Part shown: positions 3,013 through 60,604 of the stretch, in pieces
How the letters are laid out: the number at the start of each line of letters is the position of its first letter
Position numbering within the stretch: position 1 is the first letter of the stretch
Source of the DNA: Patescibacteria group bacterium
GTDB lineage: Bacteria > Patescibacteriota > Patescibacteriia > UBA9934
DNA length: 64,000 nucleotides
Assembly (NCBI GenBank): GCA_018062825.1
Contig: JAGORL010000003.1
Span: 72,333-136,332, forward strand
Direction: 5' to 3'
Translations under genes and position numbers: made by a program
Notes under the pieces: model-generated
Told to the model about the DNA's origin: nothing
Database searches by the model: none
The model's input: only the letters and a program-made list of their open reading frames with translations

Positions 3013-3468
3013 ATGACCTCGGCGACGCGCGCTCGCATACTCGCCGTCACCGTTTTTTTTGGCATTCTTGATGCAATCATGAAGATGCTCGCGCTTCGTT
3101 CTTTTCCTGACGATAGCCAAGCGCAGGGGATTGCCAGTCTTGCGCTCCATCACAATTACGGGATTGCATTTAATATCCCAGTGCCACTTTACGCAGTGAT
3201 TCCATTCACGATCGCAGTGCTCGTTTTTTTTGCAGGATTTGCTTATCATGATTGGTCGATGCACGTTGCACGCTCAATGGCATCATGCATGGTCATTATT
3301 GGAGCTTTAGGCAACCTTGTTGACCGCGTTGTCCATGGGTTTACTACTGATTGGCTGATTCTTCTTGAGCGCTCTGCGGTTAATATCTCTGATGGGATTA
3401 TATTAGTCGGTATTCTTTTGTTCTTGTGGTACAGTGAACATACTCCCCAGGTTAGTGATTCACATTAA
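3013..3468 (+). CDS. lspA: Lipoprotein signal peptidase II
   Basis: Four hydrophobic segments and conserved LspA motifs (NYGIAFNI, GNLVDRVVHG). Confidence 0.75.
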   Translation: MTSATRARILAVTVFFGILDAIMKMLALRSFPDDSQAQGIASLALHHNYGIAFNIPVPLYAVIPFTIAVLVFFAGFAYHDWSMHVARSMASCMVIIGALGNLVDRVVHGFTTDWLILLERSAVNISDGIILVGILLFLWYSEHTPQVSDSH

Positions 3469-31737: not shown

Positions 31738-31827
<90 letters not shown>

Positions 31828-31946
31828 AAAAACCTACCCAAGTTGGCTATCTACTGTGTCGTCGATATTCGACTCGGCCTCTTCGTACTTATCAGTACGA
31901 TTTGGCCTGCGTCGTATCGTCTCTTTGTATATAGCCAACTTAGTAG
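31828..31946. repeat. tRNA-abutting structured element, copy 1
   Basis: Begins AAAACCT immediately at the tRNA-Ser 5' boundary and ends AGGTTTTT. A ~22-bp imperfect terminal inverted repeat encloses a ~75-nt core that is ~70% identical to copy 2 at 49910-50040. Confidence 0.6.
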
Positions 31947-32113
31947 GTTTTTATCGTGCGTCATTACTGTTTCTGTTTCAAACTATAGCTATTTGCTATG
32001 TTGTGAATTGCTTGATGAACTTGCTTTTAAGCGACATTACTTTAGTGCAGGTGACGTAATTTCGCAACTATGGTTTTATGGTGAGGTTTCATTTGCGTTA
32101 TACTTTTACTACT

Positions 32114-32977
32114 ATGCAGATTCGCAAAGCGATTATTCCGGTAGCTGGTATGGGGACACGATTCCTGCCCGCAACCAAGGCTCAGCCAAAAGAAATGTTG
32201 CCGGTCGTTGATAAGCCTGTTATTCAATACATCGTTGAAGAGGCGGTGGCGGCTGGTATTGAGGAGATTATTTTCGTGACCGCCATGGGCAAGAGGGCGC
32301 TTGAAGATCATTTTGATCGTAACTTTGAACTTGAGTATCGCTTAGAGCAAAAGAAGAAGCTTAAGGAGCTTGAGAGTGTGCAGCGTATAGGTAAGCTTGC
32401 TCGTTTTGCTTTCGTTCGTCAGCAAAAGCCACTTGGGGATGGTCATGCAATTTTAGCGGCTGCGCCTTTTGTTGGGAAAGATGAAGCGGTAGCTGTGTTA
32501 TTTGGTGATGACATTATTACCGGGAAACAACCGGCTATTGGTCAACTTATTGATGTTTACAATAAGTATCAGGATCCCGTGGTAGCTATTCAGGAGGTGC
32601 CGAAACAAAGTGTTTCTAGTTATGGTGTTATTGACGGTACAAAATTGGATGCGCATACCTGGCAGGTTCAGGATTTTATGGAGAAGCCTGATCCGAAAGA
32701 CGCTCCATCAAACTTGGCTGCTGTCGGAAGATATGTGATTACGCCAGAGATCATGCAGATTTTGGTTGATCAAAAACCGGGTAAGGATGGCGAGATTCGT
32801 TTAGCTGATGCCTTCATGACGTTTTTGAAGGAGCGACCAATGTATGGCTGTAAGTTTGAAGGCAATCGATATGATTGCGGAAATAAGTTGCAGTTCATCA
32901 TTGCACAAATTGAACTTGGACTTGAGCACGGTGAGGTGAAGGCTGAGCTTGCTAAGTACTTGAAGAAGATGAAATAG
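32114..32977 (+). CDS. galU: UTP-glucose-1-phosphate uridylyltransferase
   Basis: N-terminal signature KAIIPVAGMGTRFLPATKAQPKEMLPVVDKPVIQY and the expected length. Confidence 0.85.
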   Translation: MQIRKAIIPVAGMGTRFLPATKAQPKEMLPVVDKPVIQYIVEEAVAAGIEEIIFVTAMGKRALEDHFDRNFELEYRLEQKKKLKELESVQRIGKLARFAFVRQQKPLGDGHAILAAAPFVGKDEAVAVLFGDDIITGKQPAIGQLIDVYNKYQDPVVAIQEVPKQSVSSYGVIDGTKLDAHTWQVQDFMEKPDPKDAPSNLAAVGRYVITPEIMQILVDQKPGKDGEIRLADAFMTFLKERPMYGCKFEGNRYDCGNKLQFIIAQIELGLEHGEVKAELAKYLKKMK

Positions 32978-38826: not shown

Positions 38827-39203
38827 GGATGACCTCACAGTGGAAGGAGCGGATACTTTACCTGGCAGGTATTAGCCAGTTCAAGTAACACATATTTATA
38901 GCACAAATTTTGGAAAAAGTCAAGGGGGTTAGTGAGATAATTTGGCTAATATTAGAAGAAAATGTGAAATCGGAGATCGGGGATCGGAGATGGATTGAAA
39001 TGCTTTTTTGTGATTGCTACACGGAGATTTCTCAACTCGGCATTCAGACTCGTTCGGGATCGCAAGACGATACATGTAATTGTTTGTTGAGACCTTCCCG
39101 AACGAAAGTTAGGGATCTTGGTTATGTGTTGGCTCTTGGCACGAAGGCTAGACCCCTCACTTGCGTTCGGGGAAGTTTTCAATACTTTTAATAATGGCAT
39201 TTT

Positions 39204-49755: not shown

Positions 49756-49834
49756 AGGTGATTCTTGGCTTAGTATACAGGTGCGTTGACGACTTTTTGA
49801 AAAACCGTTATATTGCCACTCGTTCAGACTACCG

Positions 49835-49909
49835 GCGGCGGTAGTTCAGTGGTAGAACATCTCCTTGCCAAGGAGAGGGTCGAGGGTTCGAGTCCCTTCC
49901 GCCGCTCCA
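49835..49909 (+). tRNA. tRNA-Gly (GCC)
   Basis: GCGGCGGTAGTTCAGTGGTAGAAC..TCTCC-TTGCCAA-GGAGA..GGTTCGAGTCCC..CCGCCGCTCCA. Confidence 0.9.
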
Positions 49910-50040
49910 CAAAAAACCTCATATAATTTCCCCTGGCTGTGTCGTCGGCCCTAGGCTCGGACTCGTCGTACTTTCTTAGTACGCCTCGTCCTGCGCCGGG
50001 CCATCTCCTTGCCAGAGAAAATTATCTGAGGTTTTTTATT
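49910..50040. repeat. tRNA-abutting structured element, copy 2
   Basis: Starts AAAAACCT directly after the tRNA-Gly CCA and ends AGGTTTTTT. A ~25-bp terminal inverted repeat (sequence differs from copy 1) encloses a core homologous to copy 1 (shared CTGTGTCGTCG, CTCGG, CGTACTT-loop-AGTACG hairpin, CCTGCG). Confidence 0.6.
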
Positions 50041-50053
50041 TACTCATATTTCA

Positions 50054-50085
50054 AGACCCACGGAAAACCGCGGGTCTTTTGTTTT
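50054..50085 (+). terminator. Intrinsic terminator after tRNA-Gly and the element
   Basis: AGACCCACGGAAAACCGCGGGTCTTTTGTTTT; near-copy of the terminator at 37223. Confidence 0.7.
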
Positions 50086-50305
50086 ATGCTGAGGTTGGCA
50101 CTGGCGCTGCTGCTCCGGCCATCTGTTTGCGAATCCAGGAGATTCCGGAGCGATTACCCGCTCGGTACTGGTCTTTAGCGATTGAGACTACGAACTGCTG
50201 AAGTTCCCATTCGATATCTTCCGGCATGTCGTACTTGCGCATGAGGGCTTGGAATTTATCAGTGAGTTCAGTGAACCAGCGACCGGTTGTTTTTTCATCG
50301 GACAT
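50084..50305 (-). CDS. Small hypothetical protein (73 aa) translationally coupled to the upstream LTD protein gene
   Basis: ATG overlaps the stop of the 800-aa gene by 11 nt; charged soluble product, no motif recognised. Confidence 0.45.
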   Translation of the reverse strand: MSDEKTTGRWFTELTDKFQALMRKYDMPEDIEWELQQFVVSIAKDQYRAGNRSGISWIRKQMAGAAAPVPTSA

Positions 50306-57250: not shown

Positions 57251-57408
57251 TCCGCCGCACTGTTCGTGAACAAAAGTTCACTTCAGAAGAGCTTTTTGGA
57301 CGAAAGTCCAGCGCGCCCTTCTGAACGTTTACAACTAAATATTCTACGAAGAAAAAGCAAACGCACTGATATCATGACCAAAAGGTCATGCGTACTCAGT
57401 GAATGGAG

Positions 57409-60418
<3,010 letters not shown>

Positions 60419-60480
60419 TCCATTCACTGAGTGCGTTAAATCGCACGCGTTTGCTAAACGAATAAAAAAACATTTCATTG

Positions 60481-60590
60481 TCTTGGTGGCATTTCCAGCG
60501 GGGACACACCCGTTCCCTTCCCGAACACGGAAGTTAAGCCCGTTTGGGCCGATGGTAGCCAAGTGTGGCGAGAGTAGGTGGCCGCCAGGA
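60481..60590 (+). rRNA. rrf: 5S ribosomal RNA
   Basis: TCTTGGTGGC..CCGAACACGGAAGTTAAGCCCG..GATGGTAGC..GAGAGTAGGTGGCCGCCAGGA; ends pair. Confidence 0.9.
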
Positions 60591-60604
60591 CAATGCAATG
60601 TTTT

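Follow-up and report, generated by a model that had tools for sequence, protein, structure and literature searches.

The leaders of bacterial tRNA transcripts are usually short, unconserved, and discarded. Functional RNAs cut from tRNA precursors are known, among them the external-transcribed-spacer sponges of E. coli (PMC8166272, PMC7815308). Correia (CREE) and ERIC repeats are intergenic elements with a length of ~100–150 bp and long terminal inverted repeats that are transcribed, form hairpins cut by RNase III, and vary between strains (PMC2649163). Here, we describe a rod-shaped RNA, henceforth the rod, that occurs twice in a 64,000-nt stretch of DNA from a Patescibacteria group bacterium (assembly GCA_018062825.1, contig JAGORL010000003.1; henceforth the window). 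The rod is ~121–127 nt long and represents a new family of structured RNAs that is covarying, strand-specific, and tRNA-linked. By analogy, we class it as a tRNA-precursor-derived RNA that would work most like the E. coli sponges and looks most like the Correia and ERIC palindromes. As with the 3′ external transcribed spacer of E. coli glyW-cysT-leuZ, a sponge for small RNAs (sRNAs), the rod would be part of a tRNA primary transcript (PMC8166272, PMC7815308), and it would share with tRNA-precursor RNAs an output that is tied to tRNA transcription and, as we propose, a release by tRNA-processing nucleases. The E. coli spacer RNAs are short, mostly unstructured, and act by base pairing with Hfq, whereas the rod is a 125-nt covarying RNA that has conserved non-canonical loops and occupies the 5′ leaders of a number of different tRNAs.

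ARAGORN identified five tRNA genes in the window, and an initial annotation had described two related elements adjoining tRNA gene ends. These elements are real, and the association turned out to be general. Copy 1 (c1) had been placed at 31828–31946; the start at the 5′ boundary of tRNA-Ser was correct, but the end was 6 nt short, and we set it at 31952 because the terminal T-run (AGGTTTTT) stops there. Copy 2 (c2), placed at 49910–50040, has the limits 49911–50037, with one nucleotide (C49910) between it and the CCA of tRNA-Gly. Both copies start with AAAAACCT and finish with AGGTTTTT, as had been reported. They are bounded by terminal inverted repeats (27 nt, 89% complementary in c2; 26 nt, 77% in c1) and share a CGTACT-loop-AGTACG hairpin, and they are 72% identical in the core and 42% identical in the closing stem, in agreement with the earlier description of a covarying closing stem around a conserved core. 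Both copies fold better than shuffled sequences (z = -7.8 to -10; none of 200 shuffles was as good), and a covariance model scored them at 117–134 bits with the rest of the 64 kb below 20 bits throughout.

To identify further members, related loci were obtained by means of the flanking proteins; homologs of GalU, a CapA-like protein, and a lamin-tail-domain (LTD) protein led to syntenic contigs, and ~250 kb from seven related organisms was searched with covariance models with filters off. The GalU homologs place the organism of the window among Uhrbacteria-like Patescibacteria, with which its arrays of T4SS-pilin genes agree. Model R1, which was built from c1, c2, and c3, found five further copies. 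The resulting family comprises eight full copies of 121–127 nt and, in addition, a half copy; they come from four Uhrbacteria-like organisms, c4–c6 being from one sample that was assumed to represent a single organism. All eight full copies lie 0–12 nt from a gene for tRNA-Ser(CGA), Gly(GCC), Leu(UAG), or Leu(UAA), and no rod was found away from a tRNA gene in the ~250 kb. Within this sequence, a covariance-model search of the kind that had been suggested for these elements yielded only tRNA-linked copies, the full ones all with a conserved stem. In the relative bearing c3, the flanking proteins are 61–65% identical to those of the window. A stretch of ~95 nt, made up of the promoter of tRNA-Gly, its leader, and the first 30 nt of the tRNA, is the same in the window (49770–49864) and in L100 (1–95), which is from a relative in which the flanking proteins are no more than 61–65% identical. 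Synteny on the galU side is not kept, and three relatives lack either tRNA-Ser or a rod at that location.

No Rfam family covers any copy at the gathering threshold. With Rfam 15, no family was found on c1 and c2 at E values up to 10, the overlapping matches being due to chance (E > 1) or to the neighboring tRNA or terminator, and none on the copies from contigs L099, L103, L107, and L108 at E values up to 1. Exact-pattern scans of genomes, metagenomes, and viral contigs with patterns from c1 and c2 gave only chance matches in genomes with a high G+C content; these scans were unproductive because a pattern based on two copies is too strict, given that copies identified later differ in CTCGG, CCTGCG, and TCTC. 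Two scans of viral contigs with family-wide motifs gave 0 matches and seven loci, respectively; the seven loci had neither a match to model R2 nor a tRNA. Phage and plasmid BLAST collections contained no rod match. A survey of the literature on 6S RNA, non-coding RNAs, and RNase P with leaders in the Candidate Phyla Radiation (CPR)/Patescibacteria found nothing relevant. As far as these searches show, the rod is a previously undescribed family whose architecture and genomic habit are new within the literature searched.

The rod is unbranched, with no branch points. When the eight copies were aligned with the model, 89% of the pair cells contained standard pairs, and both sides had changed in 36 of the 47 pairs; these counts rest on an alignment fitted to the model. 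None of 500 shuffles reached these values, and sliding the partners by 1–3 columns reduced pairing to 34–44%. MAFFT and RNAalifold without the model recovered the same rod with 38 pairs, 23 of which have double changes. The closing stem has 21–27 bp and includes a conserved U.G pair and, directly after it, a bulged G (CUAAGUUUG/CAAACUUGGG in c1, c4, c5, c6, and c8). It leads to an asymmetric internal loop (J1) in which 5′-GGAG faces 5′-CGAC as G-C, G.A, A.G, and G-C, and 2 and 3 bases on its outer side remain unpaired. RNAalifold independently predicted both G-C pairs that flank the G.A/A.G step (columns 31–99 and 34–96). The inner helices covary, and the sequences and folds reveal a second tandem G.A step beside the fourth helix in seven of the eight copies. 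The rod ends in an apical hairpin (P5), CGUAnn/nnUACG, in which the top two pairs covary (columns 60–68 and 61–67). Covariation and the conserved core bear out the proposal of a structured RNA element.

Several lines of evidence identify the strand that folds. Within pairs, there are 24 G.U combinations and 4 A.C combinations in the minus-strand orientation of the window, and the minimum-free-energy folds contain 23 G.U pairs in this orientation and 3 in the opposite one. The minus orientation is more stable in all eight copies, by 2.4–18.2 kcal/mol, and the model-independent consensus fold has an energy of -34.3 versus -21.2 kcal/mol. Across the copies, the model scores are 88–119 bits in the sense and 22–40 bits in the antisense orientation. 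For c1 the minus and plus strands have energies of -57.8 and -55.4 kcal/mol and R2 scores of 119 and 40 bits; for c2 the corresponding values are -66.2 and -54.4 kcal/mol and 117 and 36 bits, with 3 and 0 G.U pairs. The ratio of G.U to A.C, the stabilities, the consensus energy, and the model scores therefore identify the folded strand as the minus strand of the window and not the plus strand, which had been taken as the functional one.

Table 1. Location of the rod copies, their parts, and adjoining features. Coordinates refer to the window unless a contig is named.
Feature	Location	Strand or orientation	Remarks
Rod copy c1	31828–31952	minus	125 nt; 3′ U5 abuts G+1 of tRNA-Ser(cga), 0 nt upstream; immediate 5′ leader
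tRNA-Ser(cga)	31738–31827	minus	ARAGORN; Rfam tRNA model, 60.5 bits; same strand as and directly 3′ of c1
c1 internal loop J1, 5′ strand AAAGAGAC	31919–31926	minus	UAGGAGC or AAGGAGA in other copies; bears GA of the tandem G.A module
c1 internal loop J1, 3′ strand GACGACACA	31855–31863	minus	Family consensus G-CGAC-A(A/C)C
c1 apical hairpin P5, UCGUACU-GAUA-AGUACGA	31883–31899	minus	Top two pairs covary: CGUAUG/CAUACG and CGUAGG/CCUACG elsewhere in the family
Rod copy c2	49911–50037	minus; convergent with tRNA-Gly	127 nt; 3′ U6 1 nt from CCA; identical copy in L101 (second sample)
tRNA-Gly(gcc)	49835–49909	plus	ARAGORN and Rfam tRNA model; 3′ end faces c2
Promoter-like site of tRNA-Gly, TTGACG-17-TATATT	49786–49814	plus	Same sequence in relative L100
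c2 internal loop J1, 3′ strand GACGACACA	49938–49946	minus	From alignment
c2 apical hairpin P5	49966–49983	minus	Hairpin shared with c1
G+C-rich hairpin between c2 and 73-aa ORF	50053–50079	both considered	Followed by UUUUGUUUU on plus strand (terminator)
Rod copy c3	L102 2833–2956	convergent	Ortholog of c2; 3 nt from CCA of tRNA-Gly
Rod copy c4	L099 46–168	tRNA sense	11 nt upstream of tRNA-Ser, which is cut by contig end
Rod copy c5	L103 3443–3563	tRNA sense	4–5 nt upstream of tRNA-Gly
Rod copy c6	L103 51–174	tRNA sense	~9 nt upstream of tRNA-Leu(tag)
Rod copy c7	L107 3195–3315	tRNA sense	2 nt upstream of tRNA-Leu(taa)
Rod copy c8	L108 2882–3003	tRNA sense	5 nt upstream of tRNA-Leu(tag); preceded by 5′ half copy

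In six of the eight copies, the strand of the element is the sense strand of the tRNA located 0–12 nt downstream. This spacing leaves no room for a promoter before the tRNA, and therefore the rod is most simply transcribed as the 5′ leader of the tRNA; location in a tRNA precursor applies to c1 and c4–c8 and not to the convergent c2 and c3. The tRNA-Gly loci of L103 and L107 have the promoter TTGACG-17-TACTCT in common; in L107 the tRNA follows ~11 nt after this promoter, and in L103 copy c5 sits between promoter and tRNA. A promoter-like site called by the prediction tool (TTGTCA-17-TAAAGT) lies 60 nt upstream of c6, and the other upstream promoters were seen by eye and are weak by the criteria of the tool. 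Following the rod, U-tracts of U5–U6 are present in c1–c3 and of U4 in c5 and c6, c8 has UGUUUGUU, c4 has UUUCU, and c7 has none. A simple scan for terminators called none of the rods, because its loop limit of 3–8 nt excludes such long hairpins. Bidirectional intrinsic terminators in this genome, after tRNA-Cys and tRNA-Leu, have flanking A-runs and U-runs like those of c1–c3 (A5–6, U5–6). The rod differs from ordinary terminators in having a hairpin that is 4–5 times longer and a conserved core, in lacking the tracts in c4 and c7, and in being mostly upstream of the tRNA.

The minus-strand copies c2 and c3 are located downstream of an operon encoding the LTD protein and a 73-aa ORF and end with U6 or U5 at the CCA of tRNA-Gly. 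The promoter-like site of tRNA-Gly indicates that transcription also passes through c2 on the plus strand, and the element had previously been proposed to be a trailer that is co-transcribed with tRNA-Gly. Under this proposal c2 would act on the plus strand as a terminator or processing signal; it is in line with the absence of a terminator before c2 and with the position of the stem and U6, which is precisely where A-run/stem/U-run terminators follow other tRNAs of this genome. However, the plus-strand folds of c2 and c3 are 11–12 kcal/mol weaker, termination does not need a conserved core, a second terminator follows c2, and in the remaining six copies the rod is a leader and has the opposite sense. 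A trailer is therefore a very improbable account of the element, which is typically a 5′ leader; it may be a secondary role of the c2 locus alone, where the plus-strand hairpin with U6 may additionally terminate tRNA-Gly transcription, and it does not explain the family.

The second terminator is a hairpin at 50053–50079 that is followed by TTTTGTTTT on the plus strand and is conserved in a relative as well as in a second sample of the same species (L101). The hairpin that had been noted as a terminator after c2 is genuine, and Rfam gives sub-threshold alignments of it to terminator parts of sRNA families. A single plus-strand A.C mismatch kept it from being called in the simple terminator scan of the window. 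On the minus strand, a G.U pair completes a perfect 11-bp stem (-20.4 vs. -15.9 kcal/mol on the plus strand); the U-tract is on the plus strand and the minus strand has none. In the counterparts in L101 and in the relative, the stem is perfect on both strands. Because this hairpin lacks a U-tract on the minus strand, transcripts of the minus-strand LTD/73-aa operon can read into c2.

On the basis of these results, we propose that the rod is a leader-encoded structured RNA that is released and probably bound by protein, a reading to which we assign a probability of about 0.5. The rod would be transcribed between a sigma-70-type promoter and the tRNA as part of the 5′ leader, and the RNase P cut at the 5′ end of the tRNA would free it as a discrete RNA. 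Its long closing stem would protect the freed RNA from exonucleases, and a protein would probably bind through the G.A loops and the bulged G; rod output would thereby be coupled one-to-one to transcription of the tRNA. At c2 and c3, transcripts reading through from the operon upstream would instead produce the rod. Its 3′ end would be set by the stem-plus-U6 terminator of the rod itself, and this would also stop transcription of tRNA-Gly arriving from the other side. Release by RNase P, stability, protein binding, and action in trans are thus all inferred. An analogous event is known in eukaryotes, in which an RNase P cut at the tRNA-like fold of mascRNA makes the 3′ end of the upstream MALAT1 RNA. 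Only the mechanism is analogous, since the rod is a bacterial RNA and is followed by a true tRNA. Among the readings considered, we give the released RNA the highest likelihood because the core persists in c2 and c3, which are not leaders. These copies have also retained the conserved loops, an argument that the function of the rod goes beyond a cis effect on the tRNA downstream of it.

Several observations weigh against a released RNA. The pair counts depend on an alignment fitted to the model, as noted earlier. We found no convincing minus-strand promoter for c2 or c3, and the hairpin upstream of c3 in the relative is a good terminator on the minus strand. In c1, c5, and c6, the closing stem is followed just before the tRNA by U4–U5 and resembles a terminator; because such ends would lower the output of the tRNA, they fit a role in cis as well as, or better than, a role in trans. 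The rod is also present at some tRNA genes and absent from their orthologs in other organisms, and L108 has a half copy beside a full copy; both features would be less expected of a housekeeping RNA than of an element that spreads.

A role in cis could take the form of an attenuator, in which a factor binding the G.A loops sets read-through, of a device that sets the rate of cleavage by RNase P or RNase III, or of a shield against Rho or 5′ exonucleases. It would account for the six copies that lie in sense orientation between a promoter and a tRNA 0–12 nt downstream, and for the U-rich tracts directly after the 21–26-bp stem in c1, c5, c6, and c8; the closing stem of ~26 bp would also have the right length for an RNase III substrate. 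On the other hand, a usable U-tract is lacking in c4 and c7, the distance to the tRNA is not constant (0–12 nt), the orthologous tRNAs of close relatives manage without a rod, and c2 and c3 keep core and loops with no sense tRNA downstream. We therefore regard a purely cis-acting leader as possible, and distinctly less probable than the released RNA.

The evolutionary behavior of the rod bears on both its function and its mobility. The orthologous pairs c2/c3 and c1/c4 keep the fold through many compensatory changes, and the neighboring spacers are so divergent that they cannot be aligned; retention of the fold while the spacers diverged argues for selection on the structure. As had been suggested, tRNA ends in related organisms were inspected and include both filled and empty orthologous sites. 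At tRNA-Gly, L103 has a copy in the leader, L107 and L104 have none, and the window and L102 have a downstream convergent copy. A rod is associated with tRNA-Leu(tag) in L103 and L108 and absent in the window, with tRNA-Leu(taa) in L107 and absent in the window, L100, and L104, and with tRNA-Ser in the window and L099 and absent in L094. Such uneven occupancy of orthologous tRNA loci suggests that the rod occasionally spreads from one tRNA leader to another. Pairwise identity among the copies is 46–70% (31–81% in the closing stem), with no near-identical set, and the similarities are mosaic: the outer stem is common to c1, c5, and c6, which span different organisms and tRNAs, and the core is common to c5, c7, and c8. 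On the minus strand of L108 (~3015–3080), the half copy GAAAACCTATTAAGTTTCGTCAGTTACGAGGCGGAGGCGAGTAAGGCCGAAG corresponds to the 5′ half and lies just upstream of c8. This half copy is similar to c6, the copy located at the orthologous tRNA-Leu(tag), and taken by itself it does not fold (z -0.1). In L094 (GCA_049296775.1, 9041–9210), the tRNA-Ser(cga) that lacks a rod is directly followed by a ~95-nt hairpin unit present twice in tandem (TTCGACTCACTTCGT...ACGAAGTGAGTCGAA), which scores 21.5 bits with model R2 and may represent another tRNA-flanking hairpin family.

These patterns raise the alternative that the rod is selfish palindromic DNA that inserts into the harmless flanks of tRNA genes, either like a miniature inverted-repeat transposable element (MITE) or by way of single-stranded DNA, with the RNA fold as a by-product. 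The patchy distribution at all four tRNAs, the different sides and orientations at tRNA-Gly in different lineages, the half copy, and the outer stem shared by c1, c5, and c6 all fit such an element, and the rod has the size, the long terminal inverted repeats around a core, and the patchy presence of Correia and ERIC elements (PMC2649163). It differs from these in that no direct repeat or target-site duplication, of TA or any other sequence, was detected at the junctions of the eight copies, that ~250 kb of sampled sequence contains no high-copy near-identical set, that its stems covary rather than being conserved in sequence, that it has a strong bias in strand and orientation, and that it is exclusively linked to tRNAs. 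A double-stranded palindrome would not be expected to show 24:4 G.U over A.C or a fixed orientation in six of eight copies, and dead insertions would decay rather than keep their fold at orthologous sites through compensatory changes. In addition, no transposase was found nearby among the flanking ORFs scanned, and the phage and plasmid collections gave no match. The earlier suggestion of a plain MITE is therefore disfavored, and we consider selfish DNA unlikely. A tentative reading that accommodates the spread is that the rod is a protein-binding RNA that lives in, and spreads between, tRNA leaders of the CPR and whose 3′ end would be made by RNase P, or at c2 by its own terminator; it could be a CPR-specific ribonucleoprotein or an RNA-level hitchhiker for which the tRNA leader is a “safe harbor.” Such a strategy is that of eukaryotic tRNA-targeting retroelements, and we know of no bacterial case.

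Comparison with known structured RNAs gave no closer relative. 6S RNA (Rfam RF00013 and relatives) is likewise rod-like, its closing stem being separated from an inner stem by an internal loop, and can be present in two genomic copies. A further candidate is a reduced version of 6S RNA, in which the rod would mimic an open promoter and be bound by RNA polymerase. The 3′ loop strand of c1 and c2, CGACGACACA, is presumably a 10-mer of the 3′ bubble of E. coli 6S RNA. However, other copies have GCGACAAC or GCAACAAA instead of this 10-mer, the 6S covariance models of Rfam do not match even at E = 10, and the rod is one third shorter (~125 nt vs. 150–200 nt). Moreover, its loop is small (~7 x 8 nt), where 6S RNA has a large single-stranded central bubble between long helices; closure of the loop by G-C and G.A pairs is predicted, the loop is probably structured, and the rod is a multicopy element in tRNA leaders with a variable location. 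We consider a 6S-like function the least probable of the possibilities weighed here. A Y-RNA-like architecture had also been suggested. Bacterial Y RNAs (YrlA-like) consist of a Ro-binding stem and a tRNA-like domain and are encoded beside rsr; the rod is unbranched, has no tRNA-like domain and no Rfam match, and a scan of 10 ORFs flanking both copies revealed no TROVE/Rsr domain, which speaks against this suggestion.

Several other candidates were rejected. A gene for a small peptide would start on the minus strand of c2 with AAGGAGAUGG followed by a basic ORF of 17 codons, but an indel in c1 disrupts this frame, and conservation does not follow a codon pattern. Signal recognition particle RNA would have a GNRA apical loop with AGCA/CAGG loops, and integron attC or other folded single-stranded DNA recombination sites would have R′/R″ (GTTRRRY) ends; the rod has neither. 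The 0–12-nt spacing, the unbranched shape, and the absence of a match to Rfam ribozymes are inconsistent with a self-cleaving ribozyme that makes the 5′ end of the tRNA. A promoter inside the rod (GCGACA ... TAGGTT) would have a 20-nt spacer, and the implied start in c1 would be within the tRNA.

Additional features of the window were noted. Over the rods, the ORF lists contain spurious ORFs (window 31843–32211 and 49939–50178), and in Logan contig L055 (1–315) a gene caller places a 104-aa “gene” over copy 1; the rod family accounts for the spurious ORF calls in these intergenic regions. A 27-nt inverted repeat at 39092–39176 (81% complementary, 31 nt apart) is a weak and nonspecific match to the rod model (16.5 bits). 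Genes for 23S and 5S rRNA are located at 57404–60590, with no 16S rRNA gene in the 57 kb upstream; the 23S gene carries insertions relative to the bacterial model, for example, of 59 nt and ~57 nt near the 5′ end. The 5S rRNA gene is bracketed by a 24-nt inverted repeat (60467–60490 and 60581–60604; 88% complementary) with A-run/T-run ends that is presumably a processing stem. Following galU and a gene for a solute-binding protein, six consecutive small genes from 34525 to ~37000 encode T4SS_pilin (PF18895) proteins according to the annotation of L055, and this array is conserved in all relatives obtained.

To our knowledge, almost nothing is known about non-coding RNA in the CPR, the members of which are uncultured and have small genomes that are poorly covered by Rfam, and the rod would add an RNA at the level of a family to this picture. 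A rod that is located upstream of at least four different tRNAs and is kept by compensatory evolution would show that tRNA leaders can carry conserved structured RNA. If the proposed release is true, RNase P would be the enzyme that makes the 3′ end of an upstream RNA. Being patchy and relocating, yet structurally constrained, the rod represents a border case between a gene and a mobile element.

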